Below are positions 45,498-64,000 of a DNA stretch of 64,000 bases, in pieces (the first letter of the stretch is position 1; each line of letters opens with the position of its first letter). The notes beneath the pieces are model-generated. The model saw only the letters and a program-made list of their open reading frames with translations. It did not search any database and was not told the DNA's origin. Made by a program: the position numbers and the translations under genes. Origin of the DNA: Terriglobia bacterium (GTDB lineage: Bacteria; Acidobacteriota; Terriglobia; JAIQFV01); contig JAIQFY010000011.1 of the NCBI GenBank assembly GCA_020072965.1, positions 14,925 to 78,924 of the forward strand, given 5' to 3'.

Positions 45498-45670
45498 GGC
45501 ATTCCTCAGCGCCTGGAACAAGAGTTTTAAATTTCATCTAATCTGCTGATTCTAAATACTATGCTAATACAGCCTTTTCTTTGAACTCCAGACTTCATTG
45601 GCGTACGAATTGCTAATCCTATATGTGAATTTTTGCACTAAGATTCACCATTGCCAGCAGTTCGGCGCAA

Positions 45671-45686
45671 TGGCACCCGGAATGCT
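45671..45686 (+). promoter_or_regulatory. Candidate sigma54 (-24/-12) promoter TGGCACCCGGAATGCT
   Basis: Strong -24 TGGCAC. GC of the -12 box lies 12 nt after GG. About 185 bp upstream of the decaheme cytochrome start. Confidence 0.45.
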
Positions 45687-45871
45687 GATGAATCAAACAT
45701 TGAATCTGGGATGTAGCCGCAAATGATTAATGACAACTCCGGTCTAAATTGGATAGAATCTGCCCTTGCTTCCTGCTCGCCTCTTTTAAGGTCAATCACT
45801 CTCGTTGCCATTCCTGGAAACAATTTGCTTCTTTGAGCACACCACCTAGTATGAACTACAAGGAGATTACT

Positions 45872-46873
45872 ATGACCTCATTCACGGGCCCGCTGAAGGC
45901 GATCAAGATGACGCTCATCAGCGGCTTAGTGCTTGTGGGACTTGTGGGCGCCTTTTCCCTTTCCTTCTCGAAGTCGGCCAAGCCCGACAAGGGAAAGACT
46001 CCGCAAGCCACGTCGGCGAATTACAAGGCGGAGGACTATGTTGGGGCTGACACCTGCAAGACCTGCCACGAAGAGATTTACAACAATTTCCAAAAGACGG
46101 GCCACTTCAAACTGACGCGATATGGCAACTGGACGGCCGACAACAAAGGCTGCGAAGCCTGTCACGGACCGGGCAAGGCCCACGTGGATGGAGGCGGTGA
46201 TAAGACCAAGATTCATACGTTCGAGGATCAATCAGCCAAACAGATATCTGAAACGTGTCTCCGTTGCCATGCCGGAAAAGAGGAACACAACAATTTCCGA
46301 CGGGGTGAACACTGGCGGAACGATGTGAGCTGTATCAACTGTCATGCGCCCCATTCGCCAACGGCCACAGATCTTAAAATGTTGGTCCAGAAGGAACCGA
46401 TGCTCTGCATCTCCTGCCACAGCGAGATCAAAGCGCAGTTCAATATGCCTTTCCGTCACAAGGTGATGGAAAACACCACGAAGGGCAACGTGCTGGAAGG
46501 CACCATGAAGTGTACTGATTGCCATAATCCTCATGGCGGGTTTGAACAGAAGCAGGTGAGGCTGGCAACGGGAGGAGATGCCCCCTGCATGAAGTGTCAC
46601 GCCGACAAACAGGGACCCTTTGTATTCGAGCATGCGCCGTTGAGGGAGGAGGGTTGCACGATTTGCCATATCCCGCACGGGTCGAATAATCCAAAACTGC
46701 TGAAGCGCAATGAAGTCCGGATACTCTGCCTGGAATGCCACAGCAATGCGGGCACCGTGGGAGCGCCTGATACTCCGTCGTTCCATAACCAGGCAACAGC
46801 GCGATTCCAGAACTGCACGACCTGCCATGTCAAGATTCACGGCTCGAATCTCGATCGATTCTACTTCCGTTGA
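45872..46873 (+). CDS. Decaheme c-type cytochrome, MtrA/PioA/MtoA-like periplasmic conduit cytochrome
   Basis: 10 CXXCH motifs (CKTCH, CEACH, CLRCH, CINCH, CISCH, CTDCH, CMKCH, CTICH, CLECH, CTTCH). 333 aa. Signal/TM at N-terminus. RBS AAGGAG 7 nt upstream. Confidence 0.8.
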   Translation: MTSFTGPLKAIKMTLISGLVLVGLVGAFSLSFSKSAKPDKGKTPQATSANYKAEDYVGADTCKTCHEEIYNNFQKTGHFKLTRYGNWTADNKGCEACHGPGKAHVDGGGDKTKIHTFEDQSAKQISETCLRCHAGKEEHNNFRRGEHWRNDVSCINCHAPHSPTATDLKMLVQKEPMLCISCHSEIKAQFNMPFRHKVMENTTKGNVLEGTMKCTDCHNPHGGFEQKQVRLATGGDAPCMKCHADKQGPFVFEHAPLREEGCTICHIPHGSNNPKLLKRNEVRILCLECHSNAGTVGAPDTPSFHNQATARFQNCTTCHVKIHGSNLDRFYFR

Positions 46874-46922
46874 CGTGTGAGGGGCCTACACCGCTAACGA
46901 TATTTTTGGAGAAACGCACATC

Positions 46923-48932
46923 ATGAAAAATAAAATCGGATTCACGCTTTTGATCGTGCTGGGGATCGCGATGGGGGCATTGGTGGTCCGTGCACAGTCC
47001 ACTCCCCCCTCCAGCGATACGGTCCTGGGGGGTTATACCGTGACCCAGGATGCCGAGTTGGGGGTGCGGTTTTTGGGCCGAGACGGGAATGAGAATAAAT
47101 ACCGCAGCGATCTGAATTACGGCCGGGGCTTCCGGCTCTTCAACTATGATTTCCTGGCGCGATCGAAGGACGGCCACGGAGGCTTTTTTGATCTATTCCG
47201 TGTGACGGCGCTCGGCTGGGGTGGGGATCCCAACGAGTTTCTGCGCGTGGATGTCGAGAAGAACAAGTGGTACCGTTTTGATGCCACTTTCCGCCAGTTT
47301 GATTATTTCAACAACCTCACCAATCTGGCGCTGAACCAGCACCTCGCCGATAACAGTCGCAAATTCGACGATTTCAATTTGGCGCTCTTCCCTGACAATC
47401 AGCACTTCAAGTTTTACGTCGGTTACACGTTTGACAAGAGCAGTGGGAATGCGACCACGACGTACGATTACCAGCGCGATGAGTTCCCCATCCAGTCTAA
47501 AGTCCGGTCCGTGGCCAATGACTGGCGGGTCGGCTTTGATGCCAAGGTGTGGGTGTTTGACCTTTCCTTTCTCCAGGGATACCGCATTTTTAAGGACGAT
47601 ACTACTTACGTGGTTCCCTCTCTTAATGTGGGAAATAACCCGACGAATACCAGCGTCATTAATTTCTTAACGCGGGATGTGCCGTCGCGCACCCACATGC
47701 CCTTTACCCGTTTCAGTGCCCACACGCTGATCAAGAAGAAGCTGGACTTTACCGGTCGGTTCATTTACTCAACTGGGACCACCACCTATAATTTCGCAGA
47801 GGCCGTGAAGGGGGTCGATGCCTCCAACAACAACATTCTCCTGGATCTTTTCAATGGACCCGGGAGCGCCCGGCGGCCTAACGGCATTGGTGATTTGGGG
47901 GCGAGTTTCTTTGCCACCGACCGTTTGACCATCTCGGAGACCTTCCGAGTAAACACTTTCCGCATTTCGGGCGGGTCGAACGTCTTCGAATCGTTGTTCC
48001 GCACTCGCACGACGGCATTTGGAACAACTACGCTTCCTCCGACTTTCATTTCCTCCCTGATCTTCGAACTGGTCGGATATCGTTTGTTCTCCAATTACAT
48101 TGAGGGGGACTACAAGTTCAGTCCAAAATTCTCCGGACATGTCGGTTATCGATATACGTCGCGGCGGGTGGAGTTGGGTACCTCGATTCAACCGCCTTTG
48201 GGAACGGCGCTCGATACCGACACCCAGTTCAACCACACCAACTCGGTGGTGGTGGGGTTCAAAGCACGCCCCGCTTCCATCTGGACCGTCTATTTTGACT
48301 TTGAGCGTGGCACGGCGGACAACGTGTTCACGCGGCTCTCCAATTACAACTACACCAACTTCCGCGTGCGCACCAGTGTCAAGCCGACAAAGACCCTGAC
48401 ATTTAACGCTTCCCTGGTGACCCGCGACAACAACAACCCCGCCCTCACCCAGGGGGGTCAGAACTTCGGTGTTGATGCCAAGGGGCGGATCTTTAGCGCG
48501 TCAGCGGATTTCAGCCCCAACTCGAAATTTACTTTCACAAGCGGCTATACCTATAACCGCCTTACCTCCGATTCCTCTATCATCTTTTTCCTCGGGGGCA
48601 TCCAGACCACAGGAACCAGCTTGTATTTCCTGAGGGACCATTACTTCTTTTTCAATTCCCACGTCCAGCTCCATCCTCGAGTGGGCCTTTTCTTCGGCTA
48701 TCGCATCGAGAAGGACACCGGCCAGGGAGACCAGGTTGCGAGTTCGCCGAGCCAGTTGATTTCGTCCTATCCGTTGCAGTTCCACTCACCCGAGGTTCGG
48801 TTGACTTTCAAACTGCTTGAGCATCTGGATTGGAATGCCGGGTTCCAGCGGTATGATTACAAGGAGAAATTCCTGAACAACCAAAACTACCGAGCGAATT
48901 TGCCTTACACTTCGCTTCGGCTCTACTTCTGA
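46923..48932 (+). CDS. Outer-membrane beta-barrel protein, MtrB/PioB-like porin partner
   Basis: Signal peptide. 669 aa, rich in alternating aromatic/Gly/Thr/Asn. C-terminal ...SLRLYF. Translationally adjacent to the decaheme gene. Confidence 0.65.
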   Translation: MKNKIGFTLLIVLGIAMGALVVRAQSTPPSSDTVLGGYTVTQDAELGVRFLGRDGNENKYRSDLNYGRGFRLFNYDFLARSKDGHGGFFDLFRVTALGWGGDPNEFLRVDVEKNKWYRFDATFRQFDYFNNLTNLALNQHLADNSRKFDDFNLALFPDNQHFKFYVGYTFDKSSGNATTTYDYQRDEFPIQSKVRSVANDWRVGFDAKVWVFDLSFLQGYRIFKDDTTYVVPSLNVGNNPTNTSVINFLTRDVPSRTHMPFTRFSAHTLIKKKLDFTGRFIYSTGTTTYNFAEAVKGVDASNNNILLDLFNGPGSARRPNGIGDLGASFFATDRLTISETFRVNTFRISGGSNVFESLFRTRTTAFGTTTLPPTFISSLIFELVGYRLFSNYIEGDYKFSPKFSGHVGYRYTSRRVELGTSIQPPLGTALDTDTQFNHTNSVVVGFKARPASIWTVYFDFERGTADNVFTRLSNYNYTNFRVRTSVKPTKTLTFNASLVTRDNNNPALTQGGQNFGVDAKGRIFSASADFSPNSKFTFTSGYTYNRLTSDSSIIFFLGGIQTTGTSLYFLRDHYFFFNSHVQLHPRVGLFFGYRIEKDTGQGDQVASSPSQLISSYPLQFHSPEVRLTFKLLEHLDWNAGFQRYDYKEKFLNNQNYRANLPYTSLRLYF

Positions 48933-49234
48933 GCGATGCCAATTACGCTCGAGGTAAAACCATTGGACCAAGAAGGATTATTCTTATCGATAAACTCTAG
49001 ATGTCGCGCCTGCAACGATCCGTGATACGGACGCGGACACATCGACTTCGGAAGCTGATCGTCCGATATTTTAAACAGCCACTCCTGCAGGGGGCTGCAC
49101 CTTAAGTCAAGGAGGTAGAAAACCATGGCCATGGCAGATTATGACAATGACCCCTAACCTATAGGTTGCCGATTTTTTTCGTCTACATTTGTGAAAGCAT
49201 TCACATGACGTTAACGTCAGAAAGGATCATTTTT

Positions 49235-50194
49235 ATGGTAAAGAAGCTCATATTAGCATTTACGTTCTTACTTGTTCTTGCAAGCCTATCTTTGGCCGCC
49301 AATCCCACTCCGGCACCGCTCAATGTCCCGACCTACAACTATTCGGAGTCGAATGGCTGTCCGAGTTGTCACTTCTCGTCGGGAACGGCAGGCGATCACA
49401 TGATGGAAGCGGTCGGCATGAGTATCGACAAGGGCAACACTGCTTTCACGCTCTCTGGCAGTGGCTGGCGTGCATCCCGGCATGCTCAATCCAACCATGG
49501 GTCCACGCAAAATACCTTCTGTGCAAAATGCCACTCTCCTCTTCAAGCCACACCTCAAGCGACCTTTAACAATGGGTTCCTGGAGAACACGGCGTTGATC
49601 GCTGATGGCCAAATGGAAGGTGTCACCTGTGCGGGGTGCCATCCGCCCCACGCCACCGTTCCTCGCCTTGGGATTTACCATTTCGGTCAGGACAAGACCA
49701 AGGCATCATCGTACACATTGATTCAGGAAGATGAGCAGGACCTGCTTTGCCTCAACTGCCACGTCAACCGACACAACGAGACCAACACTGCCTTTAAGCG
49801 GATGTACGACGCCGGCGTGCAGTGCACGGATTGCCACATGGCTCGCTATGGATTGACCAACAATGGTCAGGGTACAGTCCAAAAGCGCTTCCATGATTTC
49901 AAGGTGGCAGAGAATCTACCGTATTCCTGCGGTGTCGACGGGGCGGTTTCTGGATTCCGGTGCCATCCCGGCTTCAGCACAGAAGCAACTCTCGCCTTCC
50001 TGCCCTTCCTGAAGGAGCAGCACAGCGATTGGTGGCCTCTGACTCAGAGTGCCGGCAAGAGAGGCAATGCGACGGCTACTAGGACCCTGGCAACACCGGC
50101 CGATTATATGGACCTCTGGAAAGAGATCCAGAACGGGACTACCCGGGTGCAGAGCGAAGCGAAACGAGTGGATCGAACTCAAGCTGCCCAGTAA
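49235..50194 (+). CDS. Secreted pentaheme c-type cytochrome
   Basis: Sec signal MVKKLILAFTFLLVLASLSLA. 5 CXXCH motifs (CPSCH, CAKCH, CAGCH, CLNCH, CTDCH). RBS AAAGGA. Confidence 0.8.
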   Translation: MVKKLILAFTFLLVLASLSLAANPTPAPLNVPTYNYSESNGCPSCHFSSGTAGDHMMEAVGMSIDKGNTAFTLSGSGWRASRHAQSNHGSTQNTFCAKCHSPLQATPQATFNNGFLENTALIADGQMEGVTCAGCHPPHATVPRLGIYHFGQDKTKASSYTLIQEDEQDLLCLNCHVNRHNETNTAFKRMYDAGVQCTDCHMARYGLTNNGQGTVQKRFHDFKVAENLPYSCGVDGAVSGFRCHPGFSTEATLAFLPFLKEQHSDWWPLTQSAGKRGNATATRTLATPADYMDLWKEIQNGTTRVQSEAKRVDRTQAAQ

Positions 50195-50372: not shown

Positions 50373-51161
50373 ATGGACTCATCAAATAGAAGACGTTTTG
50401 TTAAGAACGTGGGTGGAATCGCGATCGGTGCAGTCGCTGGGTCCGGGGTTACCCGGCTCCTTTCTTCGGACGAAGCGCCACTTGCGATTCCGGCTTTGCC
50501 TTGGCCTTATGTGGATTTGGATCCGATTGCAGTAGCCGAGAGAGCGTACCTGGGTTATTCCAACGGTGGGTGCATGTACGGGGCATTCGAGGGAATTATC
50601 GGGGAGTTACGTACCAAGCTGGGAGCACCATTCGATACCTTTCCTACCACCATGATGAAATACGGTGGCGGGGGGGTCGCCGGTTGGGGCAGTCTCTGTG
50701 GAGCGTTGAATGGCGTCGCGGCAGCCATTTATCTTTTGAAGGATTCAAAAACCGGAAATGATCTGATCAGTGAAATCTTTAACTGGTACGGAGTAGAAAA
50801 GCTCCCAAATTACCGACCAAAAACCCCGAAGTTTGAAATTGCAACCACTATTTCGGAGTCCCAGTTGTGTCATGTGTCTGTCACCAAGTGGGCTAATCAC
50901 ACGGGTTTCAAAACGGGCTCTCCCGAGCGCGCTGAAAGATGTGCGTGGCTCACTGCTTCTGTCGCCAAGTACACCACAGAATTGCTGAACAAGCAGCTCG
51001 CCGGGACTTACCAGCGGGCGCACCAAACCCCCGCGAAGGTTACTCTGTGTTTGCAGTGCCATGGACCCAGCGGCACGGTAGCCAATGTCCATATTACCGG
51101 GGGTCAAAGTAACTGCACCTCGTGTCATCATCGACACTGGGCTGGAGGAGTCGAGTTCTGA
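50373..51161 (+). CDS. C_GCAxxG_C_C family redox protein with C-terminal diheme c domain (split-Soret cytochrome-like), Tat signal
   Basis: SNRRRFVKNVG twin-arginine leader. Cys pattern C...CGALNG...C...C. CLQCH and CTSCH at the C-terminus. RBS AGGAGG. Confidence 0.65.
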   Translation: MDSSNRRRFVKNVGGIAIGAVAGSGVTRLLSSDEAPLAIPALPWPYVDLDPIAVAERAYLGYSNGGCMYGAFEGIIGELRTKLGAPFDTFPTTMMKYGGGGVAGWGSLCGALNGVAAAIYLLKDSKTGNDLISEIFNWYGVEKLPNYRPKTPKFEIATTISESQLCHVSVTKWANHTGFKTGSPERAERCAWLTASVAKYTTELLNKQLAGTYQRAHQTPAKVTLCLQCHGPSGTVANVHITGGQSNCTSCHHRHWAGGVEF

Positions 51162-52228: not shown

Positions 52229-53887
52229 TTGTCCCAGGGCATGATTGAATTCTCTATGAAATCAAACGGAAAGACACGGATGTCCAACGAAAGTTCGTGG
52301 ATTGAAGGAACAACAACTCAAGCTCCCCAGAAACTCAGTCCTACTGCCGAAAGAGGCGAGGAAAAAGCCGGGCCCGCAAATGGAGGATTTCTTGATGCTT
52401 CCATCCGTTTTCTGAGCACCGTTCGCCTGGGACTCTACCTGTTGATTATCCTCGTTGTCATCTCGTTTATTGGAACGATCATCCCCCAAAAACCGAACAC
52501 CTCTCCTGAAAACCTGCAAAGAATGTTTGCCCCCGCCAACCTCGTGCTGCTGGACCGGATTGGCATCCTCGATATTTTTCACGCCTGGTGGTTCAAGGCG
52601 TTACTGACGCTGCTCGGCCTGAACATCGTCTTCGCATCACTGGACCGCTTCTCACACGCATGGAGATACATCAGGCGCCCGGCGCGATGGCTCACCGAAA
52701 CGGTAATTCGAGCCCAGCACCAGCATGCCGAAATCCACTTCCAGACTTCCCTCGAGGAAACCGAGCGAGCGGTCAAAGGGCGGTTGAGGAAGTGCCTGGG
52801 GCATCCTGAGGAGACCGAAAGGGAGGGACGGAAGGTCATCTTTGCGCAACGGCATGTTTATTCGCGCCTGGCCGCCTATGCAATTCATCTCAGCCTCCTG
52901 GTCATCTTCGCCGGGGGATTGATCGGATTGGAATTGGGCTACAAGGCGCGGGTATCTTTGAGGGAAGGAGAATCCACTTCAAAGGTCATCCTTTTCGATA
53001 CCACGCGGAGTGTCGTGGAGGCCGCAGGGGAACCGAGGTTCCTTGAGAAGGAAATTCCCTTCACGCTTCAACTGGACAAGGCCGAAGTCGTTTTTAACAA
53101 CCCCAAAGACTCCAGCCTTCTCCACCGCGATGACATCCAGAGTCCCGGTGTGGTGAAGAACTGGTACTGCACGATGTCTGTTTGGGAAAATGGGGTCAAG
53201 CAAAGCACCCAGGTGGTGGCGGTGAACCAACCGCTTTCGCACCGGGGATTCCGGTTCTTTCAAAGTGGTTTTGATTTCGGGAACGGACTGAAGGAATTTA
53301 CATTTCAGGTTCGTTTGAAGGGGGCGGGCGGACAATCCTCTGAAGCCGTTTACAAGGTTCGAAAGGGGGACTCCTTCGAGATCAAAGACGCCCACCTGGT
53401 CGCCACGCCGGTGCGGTCGGGAATCATGCCGCAAGCCGATCTGCCCTTTGTATTTCTCAGCCTCCAAAGCAGCGATGGGAAGCCCCCTCTCCAGCTGCCG
53501 GTCTTCGACGAGCCCACGACCCAAAAAATGCGCCAGGGGGCGAACGATGCATCGCCGCTTCCTAAACCTCCTGATGGGATGGAGATTTTTCTGATCGACG
53601 CCACCCCGGAGTTCTCGACGACCCTTCAGGTCTCGCGTGATCCCGGAGTTAACACGGTGTGGGCGGGATGCATTCTCCTGATGTTGGGATTGATGGTGGC
53701 CTTTTACTTTTCGCATCAACGGGTGTGGGCCCTGTTGATTCCCGTTGAGGACGGCACGACGGTCGTCCTTGGCGGTGATTCCAGCAAGAACCGATCTGCT
53801 TTCGCAAGAAAATTTCAGCATCTTGTCGACTTGATGGGGCCACAGGAAGAAGCCTCCCCCGTGAGGCAGGATTTCAAGGAGAAGTAA
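52229..53887 (+). CDS. resB: Cytochrome c biogenesis protein ResB/CcsB (system II)
   Basis: N-terminal TM after FLDASIRFLSTVRLGLYLLIIL. Large periplasmic domain. C-terminal TM. Immediately followed by ccsA. Confidence 0.85.
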   Translation: MSQGMIEFSMKSNGKTRMSNESSWIEGTTTQAPQKLSPTAERGEEKAGPANGGFLDASIRFLSTVRLGLYLLIILVVISFIGTIIPQKPNTSPENLQRMFAPANLVLLDRIGILDIFHAWWFKALLTLLGLNIVFASLDRFSHAWRYIRRPARWLTETVIRAQHQHAEIHFQTSLEETERAVKGRLRKCLGHPEETEREGRKVIFAQRHVYSRLAAYAIHLSLLVIFAGGLIGLELGYKARVSLREGESTSKVILFDTTRSVVEAAGEPRFLEKEIPFTLQLDKAEVVFNNPKDSSLLHRDDIQSPGVVKNWYCTMSVWENGVKQSTQVVAVNQPLSHRGFRFFQSGFDFGNGLKEFTFQVRLKGAGGQSSEAVYKVRKGDSFEIKDAHLVATPVRSGIMPQADLPFVFLSLQSSDGKPPLQLPVFDEPTTQKMRQGANDASPLPKPPDGMEIFLIDATPEFSTTLQVSRDPGVNTVWAGCILLMLGLMVAFYFSHQRVWALLIPVEDGTTVVLGGDSSKNRSAFARKFQHLVDLMGPQEEASPVRQDFKEK

Positions 53888-53890
53888 ATC

Positions 53891-55375
53891 ATGAGTCGTG
53901 TTCATACCGGACCATTGACCGAAGGTGACGGGGCAGCACAGAAGAAGATACTTTGGCCGATGCTCTCCAGTGTTCTTGGGATGGTGCTGCTGGCGTTATT
54001 TGTGATCCCGAACATTCTCAAGAGCGGGGCCGGATTGATGAGTCCGGGAGCCCTGCTCAGTCTGGCCATCATTTTTTACGTCGGCTCCTCGGCCTTGCTG
54101 ATCAGCTATCTGCTGCGGCGCGTGGAGCGTCTCCTCCAGGTGGCCAAAGGGTTGATACTGGTGGGCTTCATCTTTCACACCGGTGCCATCGTCGCCCACT
54201 GGATGGTCGCAGGACGTCCGCCCATTTCAAACATCTTTGAAATGCTGATCAGTTTTGCCTGGGCCCTCATTGCCCTGGATTATGTTTTCCAGCGAATCTA
54301 TAAGCTCAAGATCCTCAGTTCGTTCAGTGTCCCCATCGCCACCCTGGCAGTATTGCTTTCGACTATCCTGCCTGCGGACCCGGAGCGAACACTGCCCCCG
54401 GCACTCCAAAGTGTGTGGCTATACATCCATGTCACCTTTGCGATTTTCAGTTATGTCGCCTGTGCCATTGCGTTTGTGGCTTCAATCCTCTACCTCGTCA
54501 AAGACCGCGTGAAGCTCGAGACTTTCGGAATGATCACACAGGCCCTCACGGTCACGACCATCGCGGGGATTGACTGGCTGGGAAATGCGGACACGGCCCA
54601 CCGGCACTTCAACATCCTGCTGCGGGGTGAGTTCTTCCTCAGCCTCCTCTACAAAGGACGTGAGATTGCCATTCCAGGGATGGAAAAGACTTACCTGGTC
54701 GCGGGACTGCCCTTTGCCGGCAACGCCTTGCGGGTCTCCCTTCTGGTAGCCGTCATCGGACTGGTCCTGTACCTGGCAAAAGCCTCTTCGAAAACTCTGC
54801 TCCGGGTGACCCAGTTGGGATTTCTCGCACAGCTGGCATCAGTGGCCGTCATTCTGGCCGCGACACTCAGTAACTCGACGCAGCAGATGATCGACAGGAT
54901 TCCCGGACAAGTTCTGGGCCAGTTTGACGCGGCGGCCCTGGCGAAGGCGGCCACGGTCAGCATCAAATCCATTCCATTCATCTTTGCGGGACTCCTCGTG
55001 GCGCTGGTCACCACACTGTTATTTCTTATCTTGCACTCCCGGCATGAGGCCATTGTATCTTCGCTCCCCGATGGCAAGCTGCTGGACGAGGTCAATTACA
55101 AGGTCGTCACCATCGCGTTTCCATTACTCACCTTGATGATTGCCACGGGAGCCTTCTGGGCCAATCGCACCTGGGGTTCTTACTGGAACTGGGACCCCAA
55201 GGAAGTGGGGGCTCTGATTACCTGGCTGGTTTATGCAGCCTACCTGCATATGCGCATCGTTCGCGGCTGGGCCGGCCGGCGAGCCGCCTATTTCGCTATC
55301 ATCGGTTTTGTGTTTGTCCTCTTTACGTTCATTGGGATTAGTTATCTGCTCCCGGGCCTCCATGCGTACGCTTGA
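53891..55375 (+). CDS. ccsA: Cytochrome c-type biogenesis protein CcsA/ResC (system II heme lyase), long form (494 aa)
   Basis: Multi-[28 protein letters not shown] is the Trp-rich WWD heme-handling motif. Confidence 0.85.
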
Positions 55376-55488: not shown

Positions 55489-55594
55489 CATGAAACTCAT
55501 GAAAATGCTGATCTTCATCTTCGCCACCGTAATGCTTTCAATCACCCTGCTGTATGACAAGGCGATACACAAAGAAAGAGGGGAAGCCTTCTAG
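55489..55594 (+). CDS. Possible small hydrophobic peptide (34 aa)
   Basis: MKLMKMLIFIFATVMLSITLLYDKAIHKERGEAF is a single predicted TM helix between ccsA and the CDF gene. Speculative. Confidence 0.2.
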
Positions 55595-55830
55595 CCACTG
55601 CCATCTGAAATACAACAAGACATTGAATGACGTGGGCACGTGTTATGCAAAGAATCACAATCTCTCCGACTGCAAGGCGCCGGAGGCAAAGTAGGCGAAG
55701 GGCATTGGACTGTCGGGCTGCATTGGAAGGCAAGGGCTTGAACGCGATTCGCGCTGGATGGAGCCCGGCGCAACGTGTTCGGGCGGAAATGTTTTTGGGG
55801 AAGGAAATGATCTCCCTGGAGTGAGACAGG

Positions 55831-56718
55831 ATGGACGGGACCAGAGAAAAAAAAGTCGTTGCTCTGACCTCTCTGGTGGCTGCCGTTTTGCTCACCCTGT
55901 TCAAAGCCATCGTGGGAGTGGCGACTGGAAGCCTCGGAATTTTGTCTGAAGCGGCGCACTCCGGACTCGATTCTGCCGCAGCGCTGATGACCTATTTCGC
56001 GGTTTCGATTTCAGCCAAACCTGCCGACGACTCCCACCACTATGGACATGGAAAATTCGAAAGTTTCTCAGCGCTCTTTGAAGTGGTCCTGCTGCTGCTC
56101 ACCTGCTGCTGGATTATCTACAGGGCCGCCTATCGCCTGGCCGGCCACCGCGTGGAGGTGGAAGTCAATGTCTGGAGTTTCGCGGTGATGGGCATTGCCA
56201 TCGTGGTGGACATCACTCGCTCGCAGGCCCTGATGCGGGTGGCCCGGCGTTACGGAAGTCAAGCCCTGGAAGCCGATGCGTTACATTTTCAAAGTGATAT
56301 CTACAGCTCGCTCGTCGTCATCTTCGGACTCATTTTCACCAAGGCGGGCTTCCCGGTCGGCGATCCATTGGCCGCCCTGGGTGTTTCTATCCTCGTCATG
56401 ATCGCCTCTGTCAGGTTGGCGATGCGATCCAGCCAGGTGTTGTTGGATCGTGCCCCCTCGGGGGTCGAGGATCATATTCGCAAGATTCTCACTTCGTTGC
56501 CCCGGGTCCTGGAAGTTCGAAAAATACGGGTGCGCGATGCGGGAACGCAGATGTTTGTCGACGTCACGATTGCGGTCGATGGCCATATGTCACTGGACGA
56601 ATCACACGCGGTGGCAGATGAATCAGAACGCCAGATCGCCGCGGTGATCTCCAATGTGGATGTGACGATCCACGTCGAGCCGGCGACTCAGGCCTTGTTT
56701 CTGAATGAACGACCTTGA
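55831..56718 (+). CDS. Cation diffusion facilitator (CDF) family metal efflux transporter
   Basis: GSLGILSEAAHSGLDSAA, HYGHGKFE and a C-terminal cytoplasmic domain. Length 295 aa. Confidence 0.85.
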   Translation: MDGTREKKVVALTSLVAAVLLTLFKAIVGVATGSLGILSEAAHSGLDSAAALMTYFAVSISAKPADDSHHYGHGKFESFSALFEVVLLLLTCCWIIYRAAYRLAGHRVEVEVNVWSFAVMGIAIVVDITRSQALMRVARRYGSQALEADALHFQSDIYSSLVVIFGLIFTKAGFPVGDPLAALGVSILVMIASVRLAMRSSQVLLDRAPSGVEDHIRKILTSLPRVLEVRKIRVRDAGTQMFVDVTIAVDGHMSLDESHAVADESERQIAAVISNVDVTIHVEPATQALFLNERP

Positions 56719-56815
56719 AATGGTATGGCTGAAGGAGGCTTTCACCCGGTGGCCACTCTTCCGGGTTTATCCCCGCTCAGGAAATCCGGCTACTCTTAGC
56801 CCATTGGATCTGACC

Positions 56816-58840
56816 ATGAAAATTCGTCCCTTACAATTACCGGGTCTGCGATCTGTCCGGTTCATCTTTCCTTTGTTTCTCTTTCTCTTAATGATCTCCT
56901 GTTCCGCGGCCTGGGGAGCAGTCAAGAGCTCTGAATGTCTGAGCTGCCACGCCATGGAGGGGTTCCAGTCTCCCGGTGGAATGAATCTGTATGTCGACCA
57001 AAAGCGATTTGAGAAGAGCGTCCACTCCTTCTTGAATTGCACGGATTGCCACTCTGACGTTTCAAAGACACCGCATGCTTCCCAATTGGCCAAAGTGAAC
57101 TGCGGTACCTGCCACGAGGAACAACAGAAAAAATTCGCGTTGTCGATTCATGCGGGAAAAGTGATTCACAATCCTTCCGACGGGGGAAACGGAAAGAAGG
57201 CGTTCACGTGCGCGGACTGCCATAGCCCTCATACGATTCTGCCGAAGAGCGATCCGGCCGCTGCCACCCATCACACCAACGTGCCCGCCCTTTGCGGCAC
57301 CTGCCATCAGAACCTGCAGTTTGTTATTGAATCGCCCATGGCAGAAACCTCCAAGCCTTTTTTCGCCTACCGGGAAAGCGTCCATGGAAAATCAGTGGCG
57401 GCGGGATCGGAGCGGGCCGCGGTCTGTTCCGACTGCCATAACGCTCACGACATCTTGCCGCCCAACAACCCGAAATCCACGATCTTCAAAACCAACACTC
57501 CCGAAACATGCAGAAGGTGCCACGAAAACATTTACGCCGAGTACAGCGATTCCGTGCATGGAAAAGCGGTGAAGCGGGGGCTTTTCAACGCCCCGGTCTG
57601 CGTGGACTGCCACGGAATCCATTCCATTAAGTCACACATTGATCCGAGGTCGAACGTGGCGGCCCAGGTCATTTCGCGATCCACATGTGGGCAGTGCCAT
57701 TCAGGAGAGAAACTCTCTGCCGAGTACGGCGTCCCCGAGAATCGAGTCTCCTCTTATTTTGCAAGCTATCACGGCCTGGAGAGCCGGGTGGGATCGGTTG
57801 AAACGGCCAATTGCGCCAGTTGTCACGGGGTGCATCACATCCTTCCGTCGGGCGACCCACGGTCCACGGTGAACAAAGCCAACCTCGCACAAACCTGCGG
57901 GCAGTGCCATCCCGGGGCCAGCGAAAATTTTGCCAAGGGTCGCATCCATCTGCTGAAAGGACAAGGGGATGCTATCGGCGGACGGATCATAACGGCTGTC
58001 ACCCAGTTTTACGTTTGGCTGATATTCCTGGTGGTGGGGGGAATGATTATTCACAACGCGATTGATTACTTCGCCCGGGCCCGCCTGCGATTGCGTGAGG
58101 ATTTGCTGCATGGGAAGGCCACCATCGAGCGAATTCACTTGAGCGGCCGTATCCAACACGGAATTATGTTGTCGAGCTTCATCCTGCTGGTCATAACCGG
58201 ATTTGCGCTGAAGTTTCCCGACGCTCAGTGGGTGCATGCCCTGTTCCTCGGAAATGCCGCTGTCCGCGGCGTGGTCCACCGCATCGCCGCTGTAATTTTC
58301 ATCGGCCTCGCCTTCTTCCATCTCTATTTCATCCTCTTCACGAAAAAGGGCCGGCAGGAATTGAAGGCCTGGCTTCCCCGGCTTCAGGATGTCCGGGACA
58401 TGCCCCTGATGATCAGCTATAACCTGGGACTTACAAATGAACACCCCCGATTCGATCGCTTCGGCTATGTGGAGAAGATGGAGTATTGGGCGCTGGTGTG
58501 GGGCACCCTCATCATGGTGGCCACCGGACTGGCGCTGTGGGCGAAAACCTTCGTCCTGTTTTACATCCCAAAATGGGGTCTGGATGTCTTTGAAGTGATT
58601 CACTACTACGAGGCCTGGCTTGCCACGCTTGCCATCATCGTTTGGCATCTCTATATGGTCCTGATGCGACCGGGTTCGTACTCGTCGAGCTGGATGTGGC
58701 TGACCGGAAAGATTACCCGCGAAGAAATGATTGAGGAGCATCCCCTGGAATGGGAACGGATGGAACGCGAATCAAGGTCAGCCGAGAATGCCGAAAAAGA
58801 GGAGGCACAAGAGATCCCTCAACCTGCCCGTTCGACATAA
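56816..58840 (+). CDS. CbcL-like fusion of an 11-heme c-type cytochrome and a dihaem cytochrome b (FdnI/HydC-like) membrane domain
   Basis: Signal/TM, then 11 CXXCH arranged in paired repeats. C-terminal 5-TM region with conserved His (HNAIDYF, HGIMLSS, HRIAAVIF, WHLYMVL). Confidence 0.75.
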   Translation: MKIRPLQLPGLRSVRFIFPLFLFLLMISCSAAWGAVKSSECLSCHAMEGFQSPGGMNLYVDQKRFEKSVHSFLNCTDCHSDVSKTPHASQLAKVNCGTCHEEQQKKFALSIHAGKVIHNPSDGGNGKKAFTCADCHSPHTILPKSDPAAATHHTNVPALCGTCHQNLQFVIESPMAETSKPFFAYRESVHGKSVAAGSERAAVCSDCHNAHDILPPNNPKSTIFKTNTPETCRRCHENIYAEYSDSVHGKAVKRGLFNAPVCVDCHGIHSIKSHIDPRSNVAAQVISRSTCGQCHSGEKLSAEYGVPENRVSSYFASYHGLESRVGSVETANCASCHGVHHILPSGDPRSTVNKANLAQTCGQCHPGASENFAKGRIHLLKGQGDAIGGRIITAVTQFYVWLIFLVVGGMIIHNAIDYFARARLRLREDLLHGKATIERIHLSGRIQHGIMLSSFILLVITGFALKFPDAQWVHALFLGNAAVRGVVHRIAAVIFIGLAFFHLYFILFTKKGRQELKAWLPRLQDVRDMPLMISYNLGLTNEHPRFDRFGYVEKMEYWALVWGTLIMVATGLALWAKTFVLFYIPKWGLDVFEVIHYYEAWLATLAIIVWHLYMVLMRPGSYSSSWMWLTGKITREEMIEEHPLEWERMERESRSAENAEKEEAQEIPQPARST

Positions 58841-58909
58841 CCCCGACGGATGGGGGCGGCGGGCCTCTGTGTTTTTTCGGCCCGGAGCTACGAGCCTTCA
58901 AGAAAAACT

Positions 58910-60700
58910 ATGCAATCCCGGAAGCGACAACGACAAAGCATGCTGGTGCTGGTGATCTTTCTGCTCGCAGTCTTTCTCGTCGTGTCTTATCGATTCTACA
59001 AGGAAACCGAAATCAAGGTGGTGGCACAGTCCGGCGTTCAACAATGGTTGATTGCAGAAACGGCCGCGGCGGGAGTGGAAGGGTACTTTGACACCATTTA
59101 CAAGCGCCTGGAAAAGGAATCCACGACCCTCGCCGCCCGCCCTGCGAACCAGCCCATTGCAGACCATTCACTCGACGCACTCTATCTCGATTTGTCGTAC
59201 CGGATTGCAGGGGTCTACCTGCTGAACGACAAATTTCAGATCGAGGTCTTTCGATCCAACGATCCCCAACTACGTAGTTATCTGCCGCAGATCACGGGAC
59301 CCTTGATGACCGCCCTTCTGCGCGGAGAACATGTGGTAGGCTCTCCGGTCGCCATCAGTAACTATGAATACATCTTCGAGATCCTCGAACCGGTGCTCGA
59401 TTCGGGGGGGCACTTGAAGATGGCCCTCGGCGCCGCGGTTCCCCTCCGGAATTTGAGCTCTCTCTATCTCGACCCGTTGAATTCCACCAAGACCCATTAC
59501 GCGTGGATGCTGGATCAGAAAGGGATGCTTCTCTACAATCCACGTCACGCCGAGATGCTGGGACACCAGATTCTCCAAAACCGCCAGGAGTGTTTTTCCT
59601 GCCACCTTAATTTCGAGACGGAAGAACGTATGGTGCGCGGGGATACGGGGACGGCGACCATCGAATTCAGGAACAAGGACCGGGACCTGGTCGCCTTTAC
59701 ACCCATCCGCATGGGTAATCAGCATTGGTCGCTCGCCGTTTCGATCCCCTATACCGAGGCCACCGCACTCACCCGTGACAGTTTTCGCAACACTCTCCTC
59801 CTGGTGGCCTTCTTCTTCTCGATCATTATTGGCGGGGCGGTGCTGGTCATGAACATGCACGCCCGCAGCATCAAGGCCGAAGAGGAGGCGCGGTTCACAA
59901 GACGGCAGGCGCAACTCGAGCGTCAATTGCTGCAGTCAGAACAACTGGCGGGCATCGGCCGTATGACCTCGCAGATTGCCCATCAAATCAAGACGCCGCT
60001 CTCGGCCATCTCGTTGAACATTGAGTATCTCGAAAAAGAAGTCCGAAAGCGCCTCCTTTCCAGTGGCGTCCCGATGGGTGATGCTTCGCTGGAAGACATC
60101 GAGAATGTCACGGCTTCAGTCACCAGCGAGATTCAGCGTCTGGCCGCTTTGATCGAAGACTATTTGAAATTTGCGCGCCTTCCTAAACCCGTCTTTCATC
60201 CGGGTTCACTGACCGAAATGTTGGAAAGCCAGGCGGCGTTTTTGGAAAAGGAAATGGGAGACCGTCACATTCAGTTGAAGGTAGACGCTGCGCCTGCGGG
60301 AAGCGGTGAGGCCGGCGGCCCCGATAAGATTCTGATGGATGAAAACCTGATCTGGCAGGCCGTTACCAATCTCATCCGCAACTCGGCCGAGGCAATGCCC
60401 TCAGGCGGTACGATCACACTGCGCGTAAGATGCGCCGACAATGACGTCGAATTCAAAGTCTCGGACGAAGGGACCGGAATCCCCGAAGACAAGCTCCCCC
60501 ACATCTTTGAACCCTTCTTCACGACCAAGCCTGACGGAACCGGATTGGGACTCTCTTATGTCCACCGGGTCGTCACCGAACATCACGCTTTCATCGCCTG
60601 CCAGAGCCGCATGGGCGTGGGAACATCATTCACGATTAACTTTCCCCGGTGGACAGACCAATCCCTGGAAGATGGAGCCTATGTTGATGCTAAATCGTGA
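58910..60700 (+). CDS. Sensor histidine kinase with periplasmic sensor domain containing a CXXCH heme-binding motif
   Basis: Two TM helices flank an approx. 280-aa periplasmic domain containing CFSCH. H-box IAHQIKTPLSAIS. HATPase_c N/G boxes (IRNSAEAM, DEGTGIP, GLGLSY). Confidence 0.8.
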   Translation: MQSRKRQRQSMLVLVIFLLAVFLVVSYRFYKETEIKVVAQSGVQQWLIAETAAAGVEGYFDTIYKRLEKESTTLAARPANQPIADHSLDALYLDLSYRIAGVYLLNDKFQIEVFRSNDPQLRSYLPQITGPLMTALLRGEHVVGSPVAISNYEYIFEILEPVLDSGGHLKMALGAAVPLRNLSSLYLDPLNSTKTHYAWMLDQKGMLLYNPRHAEMLGHQILQNRQECFSCHLNFETEERMVRGDTGTATIEFRNKDRDLVAFTPIRMGNQHWSLAVSIPYTEATALTRDSFRNTLLLVAFFFSIIIGGAVLVMNMHARSIKAEEEARFTRRQAQLERQLLQSEQLAGIGRMTSQIAHQIKTPLSAISLNIEYLEKEVRKRLLSSGVPMGDASLEDIENVTASVTSEIQRLAALIEDYLKFARLPKPVFHPGSLTEMLESQAAFLEKEMGDRHIQLKVDAAPAGSGEAGGPDKILMDENLIWQAVTNLIRNSAEAMPSGGTITLRVRCADNDVEFKVSDEGTGIPEDKLPHIFEPFFTTKPDGTGLGLSYVHRVVTEHHAFIACQSRMGVGTSFTINFPRWTDQSLEDGAYVDAKS

Positions 60701-61799
60701 TTCAGATCCCCTGATTCGACAGCAGCGCCGGGGTCGAACCCGGAAATTGGCCCAGGGACGATCTCTCACAAGGCGGGCCCTGCGCCTTGTTTCCACGAGT
60801 CTCGTTTTTGGGACAGGTCTCCTCGCGGCCTTGCTGGGTTTTTCGGCAGTCAACGCAGGTTCCACATTCGGGTCGCCGGATTGTACCCTCTGCCATGCGA
60901 ATTCAAAAACCCCTGTTACCCAGGACATGCTCAAAGACTCTGTCCATGCACGGCTCACGTGTATTGATTGTCATACTGGAATCCTGAATGCTCCCCATGC
61001 CGAGAAGCCCCCAGCCGTAGACTGTGGATCCTGCCATGCCGCCGAATCAATGGGATGGCACAAGAGTCCGCACGCGGTGAGGCCGGGCGCTCCTACCTGT
61101 GTCGGTTGCCATGGAACTCATTCCATGCATGCAATTCGCCCCGGGAACAACTCTGTCATCAAGCTGCAGATTGCCCAGCTCTGCGAAAAATGTCACGACA
61201 AGCAATTTGCCAGCTACAAGACCAGCGTTCATGCCCGAGCCTTGGAAAGAGGAGATGGAGAGGCGGCCACCTGCACCGATTGCCATGGCGGGCATGCCAT
61301 CCAAGGTCCCGAATCCGCCGGTTCGCCGGTGGCTCCTGCTTCCGTTTCCAGCACCTGCGGCGCCTGTCACGCCGATAAGAAGACCATGTCGATGTCCGGG
61401 CTCCCTACAGACCGGGTGTCCACATTCCGTAGCAGTTTTCACGCTGCCGCGTTGAGAATGGGGAACATGAAAGCTGCCACCTGTGCCTCATGCCATGGCG
61501 CCCATGACATCCTAGCTTCCCCCGATCCCGCCTCGCGCACCAGTCCGGCCAATTTGCCGAAGACATGCAGTCGATGCCATGCCGGTGTGAAGCAGGGGTT
61601 TGCCGGTGTCAGGATCCATGTTGATGTCAGCCCGACTGGGGCGAGAGCCGCCTGGTTTGTCCGAATCTTTTACATTGCATTCATCAGCATCCTGGTGCTG
61701 GGTTTCATCATTCACATTCTCGCCGAGCGCTTGGGGGCACTGAGAAAGAGAAGGATTGCGCACCGCGATGCTTCTTCGGAAAAGGGGGGTGTCCAATGA
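60681..61799 (+). CDS. Nonaheme c-type cytochrome with C-terminal membrane anchor
   Basis: 9 CXXCH. C-terminal TM helix WFVRIFYIAFISILVLGFIIHIL. Overlaps the histidine kinase stop by 20 nt. Confidence 0.8.
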   Translation: MLMLNRDSDPLIRQQRRGRTRKLAQGRSLTRRALRLVSTSLVFGTGLLAALLGFSAVNAGSTFGSPDCTLCHANSKTPVTQDMLKDSVHARLTCIDCHTGILNAPHAEKPPAVDCGSCHAAESMGWHKSPHAVRPGAPTCVGCHGTHSMHAIRPGNNSVIKLQIAQLCEKCHDKQFASYKTSVHARALERGDGEAATCTDCHGGHAIQGPESAGSPVAPASVSSTCGACHADKKTMSMSGLPTDRVSTFRSSFHAAALRMGNMKAATCASCHGAHDILASPDPASRTSPANLPKTCSRCHAGVKQGFAGVRIHVDVSPTGARAAWFVRIFYIAFISILVLGFIIHILAERLGALRKRRIAHRDASSEKGGVQ

Positions 61800-62524
61800 A
61801 TACCGCAGGTGGCCCCGAACAAGTAGACCGCAGGCCCTCGCGACAACCCGGCGCCACAATCAGCCGCCTCACATTATGGCAAAGGTGGGAGCACGGCCTG
61901 ATGGCACTTTCTGTCACGCTGCTCATCCTATCGGGTGTTGCTCTGACATACCATGAGCAAGCTTGGGCCCGATTCTTGATCTGGCTTATGGGCGGGTTGC
62001 AGGGCCGTCACTGGGTTCATCGAACCGCCGCCATAGGCCTCCTGGTCGCTGGTCTGCTGCATTTACTCGGCTTGATGCTATCTGAGCGGCATAAACGTGA
62101 TTTTCGTGAGGTCAAGCCAAGACCAAACGATTTCCGTGCCGCTTGGTCGGGGTTGAAATTTGCCTTTTCCGGAAAGGGGGAACCGCCCCATTACGGTTGG
62201 TTTACTCCCATGCAAAAGCTTCAATACTGGGGGGTGCTGATTGGATGTTTGTTGATGGGAGTCTCAGGGGTGCTTCTGTGGAACCCCGTCTTCACGCTGA
62301 ATTCCTTCCCCAAGTGGGTTCTGGACACCATGCTGGTCCTCCACGCCACGGAGGCCCAGTTCATCTTTGTGCTATTCATCCTCTGGCATCTATATGACGT
62401 CCACGTCGCGGAAGGAAATTTTCCGATGAACCCCGCCTGGCTTACAGGAAGGATGTCGGAGGAGCACTTCGCCCGGCAGCACCGTGCCTCCTGGGAAAAC
62501 GGTCGCTCCAAGGAGGAGGCATGA
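61796..62524 (+). CDS. Cytochrome b subunit (FdnI/HydC/PhsC-like dihaem b)
   Basis: 4-5 TM helices with conserved His (WEHGLMA, HRTAAIGLL, WHLYDVH). Start overlaps the upstream stop (ATGA). Confidence 0.75.
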   Translation: MNTAGGPEQVDRRPSRQPGATISRLTLWQRWEHGLMALSVTLLILSGVALTYHEQAWARFLIWLMGGLQGRHWVHRTAAIGLLVAGLLHLLGLMLSERHKRDFREVKPRPNDFRAAWSGLKFAFSGKGEPPHYGWFTPMQKLQYWGVLIGCLLMGVSGVLLWNPVFTLNSFPKWVLDTMLVLHATEAQFIFVLFILWHLYDVHVAEGNFPMNPAWLTGRMSEEHFARQHRASWENGRSKEEA

Positions 62525-63630
62525 CGCGCTCGCTCTTCAAGCCGCTTGCCCTCGAAGCCGCATTTGTCCTTCTCGGGATGACCTGGCTTGTAACCCCCCT
62601 CCCGGTCCGCGCTCAAGAAGACATTCGATGCCTTACTTGTCATGGCAAGCCCGGTTTCGAAAAAACGCTTCCCTCTGGCAAGAAGCTCGAATTATTTGTA
62701 GATCCGATGCGTTTGCGTCTCTCCGTCCACAAGGATCGGAAGTGCGTCGACTGCCATGCCGATGTGACCGAAGTCCCGCATCCCGAGATCCCCCAGAAAG
62801 TGAACTGTGGACGATGCCACTTCCTGGGTAACTCAGTAGGAGCCCCTCAGCTGCAAAGATACATCGAGTATGGGACGAGCGTTCATGGGAAAGCGCTGGC
62901 CGAAGGAAATCCCAAGGCTCCTGTTTGTCAGGATTGTCATGGAGACCATTTCATTCTTCCCGGCTCCGATGCCCGTTCTCAGGTGAACCACAAGAGCATT
63001 CCTCAGACCTGCGGGGGTTGTCATCTGGAAATCTACGCCCAGTACCAGGAATCAGTGCACGGACAGGCCCTGATCAAGGGAGTCAAAGATGCGCCGGTGT
63101 GCACCAACTGTCATGGAGAGCACAATATCCTCAAACCCCAGGACAAGACCTCCACCGTGAATCCCGGAACAGTAGTGAACACATGCTCCAAATGCCATTC
63201 CAAGGTCGTCATCATGGAGAAGTACGGGGTCAAGGCGGAGCAGGTGGCCACCTACCGGGAATCCTTCCATGGGATTGCCAACGAATTCGGGATGCTCAAG
63301 GCGGCCAACTGTGCCTCCTGTCATACCGCTCATCAGATTTTCCCGGAGCAGGACCCCCGTTCGACGGTCAATTCAAGAAACATCCCGCTCACCTGCGGAA
63401 AATGTCACCCCGGGGCCAATGCCAACTTTGCCCAGGGGCGAATTCATCTCAACCCCAAGGACAAATCGGCGGGAATCGTTTACTGGGTAGCATTGGGCTT
63501 CAAGGTCTTGACTCTATCAACACTCGCTGGTCTCCTGATCCATATCGCCCTCGACCTCTATCGCCGGTTCAAGAACCGGAAGCAGCCGGGTGAGAAGAAG
63601 GAAGTTGAAGTCGCGGAGAAGTCGCAATGA
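62521..63630 (+). CDS. Nonaheme c-type cytochrome with C-terminal membrane anchor (paralog of 60681-61799)
   Basis: Signal peptide, 9 CXXCH and a C-terminal TM helix. Same paired-CXXCH module organisation. Confidence 0.8.
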   Translation: MTRSLFKPLALEAAFVLLGMTWLVTPLPVRAQEDIRCLTCHGKPGFEKTLPSGKKLELFVDPMRLRLSVHKDRKCVDCHADVTEVPHPEIPQKVNCGRCHFLGNSVGAPQLQRYIEYGTSVHGKALAEGNPKAPVCQDCHGDHFILPGSDARSQVNHKSIPQTCGGCHLEIYAQYQESVHGQALIKGVKDAPVCTNCHGEHNILKPQDKTSTVNPGTVVNTCSKCHSKVVIMEKYGVKAEQVATYRESFHGIANEFGMLKAANCASCHTAHQIFPEQDPRSTVNSRNIPLTCGKCHPGANANFAQGRIHLNPKDKSAGIVYWVALGFKVLTLSTLAGLLIHIALDLYRRFKNRKQPGEKKEVEVAEKSQ

Positions 63631-64000
63631 GTGAAGAGAAGAGAACCTCGATCGAAGAAAGCCTTTGGGCTCAGAAGGACACGGCGGAGACGGCTGCCCG
63701 CTTGTCTCGGAGCATTTCTGATTCCGTGAGGAGAGAATTGCCGAAGGGTCTCCCGGAACCGCAGTTCAAGCGCTTGAAGAAGGAGCTTCTGGCTTCGCTT
63801 GAGAAGGAAATGGCCCTCGAGAGCCGGCGGGTCATCCGCCTCTTTCTGGATGAAGAAGAGGCACAACAGAAACATCTGGAGAAAAGGCGGAAGCGGAAAG
63901 TCCTTTTCGAAGAGTCCGTGGAGCGCATCAGTGTGAATCAACGTGCCCAGCACATGATCCTTCTTACCTGTACCGTGCTGCTTATCATCACCGGACTGCC
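63627..64000 (+). CDS. Cytochrome b subunit, second copy (5' partial, runs off the window)
   Basis: ATG at 63627 overlaps the upstream stop. The first TM region VNQRAQHMILLTCTVLLIITGL parallels RWEHGLMALSVTLLILSG of the 61796 gene. Confidence 0.5.
   Translation, partial: MSEEKRTSIEESLWAQKDTAETAARLSRSISDSVRRELPKGLPEPQFKRLKKELLASLEKEMALESRRVIRLFLDEEEAQQKHLEKRRKRKVLFEESVERISVNQRAQHMILLTCTVLLIITGL

Follow-up and report, generated by a model that had tools for sequence, protein, structure and literature searches.

Among bacterial extracellular sensors, Cache domains form the largest class. To our knowledge they were formerly thought to be cofactor-free, and a 2026 preprint presented heme-bearing single-Cache domains as the first exception. 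These domains, termed sCache_heme (PF11845, formerly DUF3365, Tll0287-like), include GSU0582, GSU0935 and Tll0287 and were reported as the first Cache domains with a covalent cofactor (PMC12889525). The sigma-54 regulator BccR of Geobacter switches on the bc-type cytochrome CbcBA as the redox potential falls, and the paper on BccR names no kinase for it (bioRxiv 10.1101/2021.04.15.440034). Here we analyse a 64,000-nucleotide stretch of DNA from a Terriglobia bacterium (GenBank assembly GCA_020072965.1, contig JAIQFY010000011.1, positions 14,925 to 78,924 of the forward strand; hereafter the window), in which a sensor histidine kinase gene with a CXXCH motif lies within an island of cytochrome genes. 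We consider it probable that this gene encodes a class I kinase with a double-Cache (dCache) input domain that bears a c-type heme in its membrane-proximal module, and that the kinase signals to an NtrC-type sigma-54 regulator of the island's cytochrome genes.

The gene product is a class I (HisKA) transmembrane histidine kinase. Its reading frame is intact, from the ATG at 58910 to the TGA at 60698-60700, and contains the following features.

58910-60700, plus strand: sensor histidine kinase gene, 596 amino acids (aa), comprising the transmembrane helix TM1, the predicted heme-dCache sensor, TM2, HisKA and HATPase_c (open reading frame, Pfam, colinear orthologues)
58940-58996, plus strand: TM1, aa 11-29, after a K/R-rich cytoplasmic N terminus (Kyte-Doolittle scan, positive-inside rule)
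58997-59788, plus strand: predicted periplasmic double-Cache sensor domain, aa 30-293 (AlphaFold, Foldseek, profile matches to dCache structures)
59162-59443, plus strand: predicted membrane-distal Cache module, approximately aa 85-178, poorly conserved (model secondary structure, few conserved columns)
59444-59749, plus strand: predicted membrane-proximal Cache module, approximately aa 179-280, with the putative heme motif, W199, G205, F235 and W273 (alignment, models)
59546-59557, plus strand: H213-A-E-M216, the query version of the family H-P-E-M motif, with the candidate distal heme ligand or ligands (family alignment)
59591-59605, plus strand: CFSCH, a c-type heme attachment motif, aa 228-232, with H232 as the presumed proximal ligand (sequence, family alignment)
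59789-59857, plus strand: TM2, aa 294-316; the helical linker after it is approximately 33 aa long (hydropathy, Pfam)
59957-60181, plus strand: HisKA/DHp domain, aa 350-424 (Pfam, 9.6e-11)
60338-60649, plus strand: HATPase_c domain, aa 477-580, with N, G1, F and G2 boxes (Pfam, 1e-24)

Three Terriglobia metagenome-assembled genomes carry kinase orthologues that are colinear from residue 1 (87%, 87% and 72% identity), and the recorded gene call of an additional orthologue (73% identity) is likewise 596 aa long, which together support ATG 58910 as the start. A Kyte-Doolittle scan of the kinase gave two hydrophobic segments, aa 11-29 and aa 294-316. Because K/R-rich stretches flank both of them (MQSRKRQRQS at the N terminus and HARSIKAEEEARFTRRQ after TM2), the 264-aa loop between them is placed in the periplasm by the positive-inside rule, and with it the CXXCH motif, as an initial annotation of the window had proposed. 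The same annotation had called the protein a HisKA/HATPase kinase, which agrees with the Pfam domains and with the boxes that can be read in the sequence: AH358QIKTPL, NLIRNSAEA, DEGTGI, FEPFFTTK and GTGLGL. The phospho-acceptor H358 is encoded at 59981-59983, within SQIAHQIKTPL. In the stretch from TM2 to the DHp domain, Pfam detected neither HAMP nor PAS, and the top-scoring families for the kinase core were AtoS and ZraS, both below their equivalog cut-offs.

The sensor domain has only two cysteines, both within CFSCH, and the probability that a CXXCH occurs by chance in a domain of such composition is about 2-5 x 10^-4. We searched 1.84 billion cluster representatives (50%-identity clusters) exhaustively with HMMER, using aa 28-296 as the query, and obtained 471 matching clusters at E<=1e-3. 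Exactly one CXXCH was present in 136 of the best 150 relatives, and it fell into one alignment column in all 137 aligned bearers (the 136 relatives and the query). Conservation of the motif among relatives, on which the initial annotation had staked its heme proposal, is thus not a matter of chance. A word-indexed homologue search with the sensor domain found no relatives, and word-indexed searches with family profiles gave two fragments only (A1) or zero (A4). An exact match to the kinase sequence was likewise absent from the assembly index.

Most relatives' alignments were confined to the C-terminal, membrane-proximal part of the sensor domain. Nearly all conserved columns lie within aa 198-285, and the conserved residues W199, G205, H213, M216, C228, C231, H232, F235 and W273 cluster in the proximal module. 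Among the 137 CXXCH bearers, M216 is conserved in 124 (91%) and H213 in 116 (85%); both residues are missing from the 7 CXXCH-less relatives that align over those columns. Such co-occurrence would be expected if the H-P-E-M motif provides the distal heme ligand or lines the heme pocket. Two relatives, P0058 and P0120, have CXXCR and CXXCY in place of CXXCH and keep the neighbouring conserved residues; these changes may reflect either genuine variation in the ligand or errors in the sequences.

One alternative explanation for the motif is that it holds no heme and instead forms a disulfide, a metal (Zn, Cu or Fe) site or a structural element in a domain that senses some other signal. CXXC motifs can act as redox-active disulfides, the island contains a cation-diffusion-facilitator gene, and heme binding is here a prediction from sequence. 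However, all 136 motif-bearing relatives keep the His that follows the second Cys, CXXCR and CXXCY occurring in just two others, and the sensor domain has no further cysteines. The Met/His motif is moreover co-conserved with CXXCH and lost together with it, and the site is periplasmic and encoded beside cytochrome c maturation genes. We consider a heme-free motif highly improbable.

The sensor domain is predicted to have a double-Cache fold. An AlphaFold2 model built from a 23-sequence alignment (predicted local distance difference test (pLDDT) 91.7, predicted template modelling score 0.88) consists of a long helix at the N terminus, two PAS-like modules (one distal, one proximal) and a C-terminal helix that runs into TM2. 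In Foldseek searches against the PDB, this model matched the double-Cache domains of PctA, TlpA and Tlp1 with TM-scores of 0.70-0.72, and the proximal module modelled alone (pLDDT 91.4) best matched the proximal modules of dCache proteins. The initial annotation had suggested checking for a PAS/Cache fold, and structure prediction supports the Cache fold. A PDB search with the single sensor-domain sequence gave noise only. In the model, CXXCH ends a short helix in the connector between strands 2 and 3 of the proximal module, and H213 and M216 precede it within the same connector. In Cache and PAS modules, the strand 2-strand 3 connector closes the ligand or cofactor pocket.

As the nearest solved folds (PctA, TlpA and Tlp1) are ligand-binding dCache receptors, the main signal might instead be a small molecule bound in the distal module, as in amino-acid-sensing dCache_1 receptors, with the heme in an accessory or modulatory role. 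Ligands of dCache_1 domains are usually found in the distal module (PMC4822843). In the present family, however, the distal module is the least conserved part, most relatives align to the proximal module only, and the conserved distal columns contain no conserved R/W/Y/D ligand-binding signature. A distal ligand as the main signal seems to us very unlikely.

Homology placed the sensor domain with dCache_1 (PF02743). The query scored 25-28 bits against PF02743, below its gathering cut-off of 45, and 23 of 23 family sensor domains matched it at E<=1, the best at 9.4e-22; many also matched dCache_2 or sCache_2. The family profile matched solved dCache proteins at E values from 1e-9 to 1e-5, including KinD (1.9e-9), Tlp1 (2.6e-8) and Mlp24. 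When the profile is aligned with Tlp1, the CXXCH region is matched by a gap of only 4 residues, with no clear inserted helix.

We rejected membership in sCache_heme (PF11845). No PF11845 match was reported for the query kinase, none of 23 family sensor domains matched it at E<=1, none of 23 isolated proximal modules did so at E<=10, and it was absent among the 25 listed (of 28) Pfam families of 74 full-length members. For the sCache_heme structures that we compared (PDB 3B47, 3B42 and 5B82), the family profiles gave no match at E<=10, and none of the three was among the top 50 Foldseek matches of the sensor domain or of the proximal module. The fold is also a double rather than a single Cache. 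The initial annotation's comparison with Geobacter heme sensors therefore has to be redrawn, as the domain is not of the GSU0582/GSU0935 type (single-Cache PF11845) but resembles the double Cache of dCache_1. Nor are heme-c Cache sensors limited to the 'few' Geobacter proteins to which that annotation referred, because sCache_heme alone comprises about 20,000 sequences (PMC12889525).

The matches to dCache_1 and to dCache structures, together with the lack of a PF11845 match, point therefore to a separate heme-dCache family, which is distinct from PF11845 and apparently undescribed; in the literature that we searched, we found no prior description of a heme-bearing double-Cache domain. The best description would be a dCache_1-type domain that appears to have acquired a heme site in its proximal module. 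HATPase_c is present in 66 of the 74 full-length members and HisKA in 61, and about one-third carry additional PAS domains. According to their source names, members come from Terriglobia, Nitrospirota, Zixibacteria, Eisenbacteria, Schekmanbacteria and Thermodesulfobacteriota, and the family is found mostly in kinases of uncultured anaerobes. Existing labels are generic ('ATP-binding protein', 'PAS domain S-box protein' or 'Cache domain-containing protein'), so that a sizeable putative heme-bearing double-Cache family is currently hidden from annotation.

The kinase gene is embedded among cytochrome genes, as the initial annotation had observed, and lies downstream of a cytochrome c maturation pair.

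52229-55375, plus strand: ResB (52229-53887) and CcsA (53891-55375), a System II cytochrome c maturation pair (Pfam, 3e-78 and 4e-49)
56705-58840, plus strand: 11-heme cytochrome c fused to a cytochrome b with 4-5 transmembrane helices, a CbcL/CbcBA-like quinol oxidoreductase (Pfam)
60687-61799 (alternative ATGs at 60672 and 60681), plus strand: 9-heme cytochrome c with a C-terminal transmembrane anchor (Pfam)
61796-62524, plus strand: cytochrome b, PF01292, with 4 transmembrane helices (Pfam)
62521-63630, plus strand: second 9-heme cytochrome c with a C-terminal transmembrane anchor (Pfam)
63627-64000, plus strand: N-terminal part (374 nucleotides (nt)) of another cytochrome b, truncated where the window stops (78% identity to L002:14718-15767)

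The 11-heme fusion gene ends 70 nt upstream of the kinase gene, and the kinase stop overlaps the possible ATGs of the next cytochrome gene (60672, 60681 and 60687) by 14-29 nt, the overlap that the initial annotation had also noted. The 9-heme gene that follows the kinase has a 70% identical counterpart in one orthologous locus, L002, and is absent from another, L001 (the locus of the 73% identical orthologue). The stretch from 56705 to 64000 (plus strand) contains repeated cytochrome b/multiheme cytochrome c units, the c subunits of which are anchored by a C-terminal transmembrane helix, as in CbcA. The cluster thus has the trait of CbcBA/CbcL-type systems, a PF01292 cytochrome b paired with or fused to a membrane-anchored multiheme c, a likeness by gene type. 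The sensor combines two traits of c-type proteins: its CXXCH is on the periplasmic side, and System II maturation genes are present, the products of which (ResB and CcsA) could attach its heme.

These neighbours also bear on the nature of the signal. The same architecture could serve a heme that senses gas (NO, CO or O2) rather than periplasmic redox state. The sole characterised heme-c Cache domains that are fused to signalling modules resemble NO sensors in their spectra and kinetics (PMC12889525; 10.64898/2026.05.25.727664), and in L015, the locus of a distant relative, a cytochrome P460 gene lies some 4.4 kb upstream of the kinase. By contrast, the Met (91%) and His (85%) conserved near CXXCH suggest a six-coordinate heme, although a weak Met ligand could be displaced by gas. 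The genes around the query are those of quinol-oxidoreductase-type b/c cytochromes and an MtrA/DmsE-like decaheme cytochrome rather than of NO detoxification, and the analogous Geobacter regulator responds as the redox potential falls. We regard a gas sensor as unlikely.

The initial annotation had stated that the window holds no cognate response regulator. Consistent with this, Pfam scans of the window's large (>=150 aa) non-nested open reading frames detected no receiver domain, and tblastn of the orthologous regulator against the window gave a best E of 2. The annotation had further suggested a search for an NtrC-type sigma-54 regulator in the flanking genome, and such a regulator closes the same cluster in the orthologous loci L001, L002 and L003. 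The gene order of L002 is that of the window: ResB, CcsA, a small CXXCH open reading frame, a cation-diffusion facilitator, the 11-heme c/b fusion and the kinase. After the kinase, L002 continues with a multiheme c, a cytochrome b, a second multiheme c, a second cytochrome b and a third multiheme c, and then a 475-aa regulator with Response_reg, Sigma54_activat and HTH_8 domains. The same regulator occupies the same place in L001 and L003 (86% and 99% identity). It is the only receiver protein in its loci and lies about 6 kb, or four to five genes, downstream of the kinase. Because the window's terminal cytochrome b is 78% identical to its L002 counterpart, we predict the regulator to lie approximately 2.7 kb past the window end, starting near 66.7 kb, behind this cytochrome b (expected length about 349 aa) and a multiheme cytochrome of about 675 aa.

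AtoS/ZraS kinases and AtoC/NtrC/ZraR regulators are known cognate families. The top-scoring families for the L002 regulator were AtoC, NtrC and ZraR (below equivalog cut-offs), which together with the AtoS/ZraS-like kinase core fits a sigma-54-type pairing. We also inspected the gene contexts of nine non-orthologous family members, four short forms with the architecture of the query and five long forms.

P0014, P0016, P0159 and P0024, short forms: a sigma-54 regulator immediately downstream in four of four
P0002 (L009) and P0004 (L012), long forms with PAS: in both cases after the kinase, a receiver-HisKA-HATPase hybrid kinase and a receiver-GGDEF protein
P0009, P0162 and P0021, long forms with PAS: a single receiver protein as the neighbouring partner

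In some cases the short-form kinase gene overlaps the downstream regulator gene. Genes of the cytochrome c7 type adjoin the kinase-regulator pair in L013 and L015, and L013 also has a cytochrome b. The contexts of P0002 and P0004 hint at a heme-sensed phosphorelay into cyclic di-GMP signalling.

As a further alternative, the partner might be an unlinked regulator, with the placement of the kinase among cytochrome genes being incidental. The window has no regulator, the orthologous one is some four to five genes away, and no sigma-54 promoter was found near the kinase. Yet the linked regulator stands in the same place at three orthologous loci and is the only receiver protein there, all four distant short forms are followed directly by a sigma-54 regulator, and the kinase core is most similar to AtoS and ZraS. 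Because the synteny repeats, we give an unlinked partner only a slender chance.

Taken together, these data suggest the following mechanism. ResB/CcsA would link the heme covalently to C228 and C231, with H232 as one axial ligand; the other would most likely be M216 (or H213), from the same strand 2-strand 3 connector. The oxidation or ligation state of the heme would report on the periplasmic electron-carrier pool or, less likely, on a diatomic gas. A change in heme state would alter the proximal module, which is predicted to lie beside the helix that continues into TM2, and the signal would pass straight through the short helical linker to the DHp domain, without HAMP or PAS, and set the autophosphorylation of H358. 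The phosphate would then be transferred from H358 to the NtrC-type sigma-54 enhancer-binding regulator whose gene is predicted to close this cytochrome b/c cluster, and the phosphorylated regulator would activate sigma-54 promoters of the cytochrome genes in a putative extracellular-electron-transfer island.

Several observations weigh against this mechanism. Covalent heme is, for every member of the family, a prediction from sequence, and we infer the identity of the distal ligand, the preference for redox over gas, the kinase-regulator pairing and the target promoters. The query departs from the family consensus at some positions, for example N210 (mostly H in the family) and A214 (mostly P). 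With no regulator in the window, the pairing depends on synteny in other genomes, and the PAS-bearing long forms adjoin other partners, so that sigma-54 output is not universal in the family. In the window and the orthologous loci, we found no sigma-54 -24/-12 element directly upstream of the kinase-proximal cytochrome genes, and consensus-like sigma-54 sites across the window were at chance level (26 found versus 29 expected).

A comparative scan of L001-L004 likewise gave no conserved sigma-54 site in the b/c cluster or close to the kinase. Good -24/-12 candidates occur at just two places in the island, 45671 (TGGCACCCGGAATGCT) and 45599, both upstream of the MtrA/DmsE-family decaheme gene. 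A sigma-54-like site at 55634 was rejected because alignment against three orthologous loci puts it within a small coding sequence that is conserved. In L015, from the Nitrospirota relative, a near-consensus sigma-54 promoter, TGGCACGGATAGTGCA (2874-2889, plus strand), lies approximately 45 nt upstream of a same-strand run of small open reading frames, NrfD, an Fe-S protein, cytochrome c7, the heme-dCache kinase and the sigma-54 regulator, a placement that suggests possible autoregulation; the cytochrome P460 gene of this locus is found just upstream.

The remainder of the island contains further electron-transfer genes. The stretch 45599-50194 (plus strand) is possibly a porin-cytochrome conduit, with three genes.

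45749-46873, plus strand: MtrA/DmsE-family decaheme cytochrome (TIGR03508, 252 bits, above cut-off)
46923-48932, plus strand: 669-aa signal-peptide protein with no Pfam match and a faint GSU2204-family match
49166-50194, plus strand: pentaheme cytochrome

A C_GCAxxG_C_C family protein with two CXXCH motifs (50373-51161, plus strand) is encoded between this cytochrome cluster and ResB/CcsA. A small open reading frame at 55490-55695 (plus strand), between CcsA and the cation-efflux gene, is conserved in L001, L002 and L004; the L002 version is a 67-aa signal-peptide protein with a CXXCH (CSYCH). The window copy has a 2-nt deletion (frameshift), and its first motif Cys is replaced by Ser, so that it is either a decayed gene or the product of a sequencing error. 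Elsewhere in the window, a 1085-aa open reading frame at 16632-19889 (minus strand) has no confident Pfam family and only a sub-threshold DUF5719 match.

A broader reading, to which we give somewhat less than even credence, is that 'dCache_heme' is a second, independently evolved heme-c Cache family, the short forms of which are redox sensors that drive sigma-54 control of bc-type cytochromes. Under this tentative reading, CXXCH and H-P-E-M would have arisen inside the dCache_1 proximal module, unlike the fragment insertion proposed for sCache_heme, and the family would comprise at least 136 clusters at 50% identity, and possibly several hundred, from uncultured anaerobic phyla (Acidobacteriota, Nitrospirota, Zixibacteria, Eisenbacteria, Schekmanbacteria and Thermodesulfobacteriota). 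The short forms could then supply the input kinase that has not been named for BccR-like control of electron-transfer branch choice.

These results indicate a distinct double-Cache family whose putative heme is in the membrane-proximal module, which couples directly to the transmembrane helix. A heme-dCache kinase would therefore be a clean system in which to study how a redox or ligand change at heme crosses the membrane. The repeated association of a heme-dCache kinase with a sigma-54 regulator and b/c cytochromes suggests a sensor through which bacteria could choose between quinol-oxidising branches as the acceptor potential changes. Such a sensor would be relevant to metal-reducing and electroactive bacteria; the host here is a soil acidobacterium with an apparent extracellular-electron-transfer island.

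Similar to sCache_heme, the query family would be an extracytoplasmic Cache sensor with a single, strictly conserved CXXCH in a helical connector over a beta-sheet, the heme c being covalent in the former and predicted in the latter, and in anaerobic lineages of the Gracilicutes type both occur joined to kinases and other outputs (PMC12889525). Unlike sCache_heme, which has one Cache module, the query has two, with the heme motif in the proximal one. Nearly half of sCache_heme domains are solitary, whereas HATPase_c accompanies the sensor in 66 of the 74 full-length (>=400 aa) members of the query family that we sampled. With the dCache_1 domains of PctA (5LTX), Tlp1 (4WY9), TlpA (6E09), KinD (4JGQ) and Mlp24 (3C8C), the query family has the predicted double-Cache fold and sequence homology in common; those domains, however, contain no cofactor, and their small ligands mostly occupy the distal module, whereas the query family has a conserved proximal module with CXXCH and H-P-E-M.

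As is proposed here for the query kinase, the heme-b PAS sensors FixL and EcDOS/DosP use a heme in a PAS-like pocket to control an attached signalling enzyme, and EcDOS and DosP were among the Foldseek matches of the proximal module (TM-score about 0.51). By contrast with the query kinase, FixL and EcDOS/DosP are cytoplasmic, hold heme b non-covalently and have no CXXCH. The BccR-CbcBA system of Geobacter sulfurreducens has the same kinds of genes as the window and its orthologous loci, with a sigma-54 regulator (receiver, AAA+ and HTH domains) beside a cytochrome b and a multiheme c, and c subunits with a C-terminal transmembrane anchor are common to both. Two heme sensors, Gsu0591 and Gsu0599, are encoded near bccR (GSU0598), to judge from their locus tags; unlike the query, they are described as single PAS-like domains with two heme motifs. 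Compared with the Geobacter system, the present host is a Terriglobia acidobacterium, and its cluster has three tandem b/c modules plus one that is fused.

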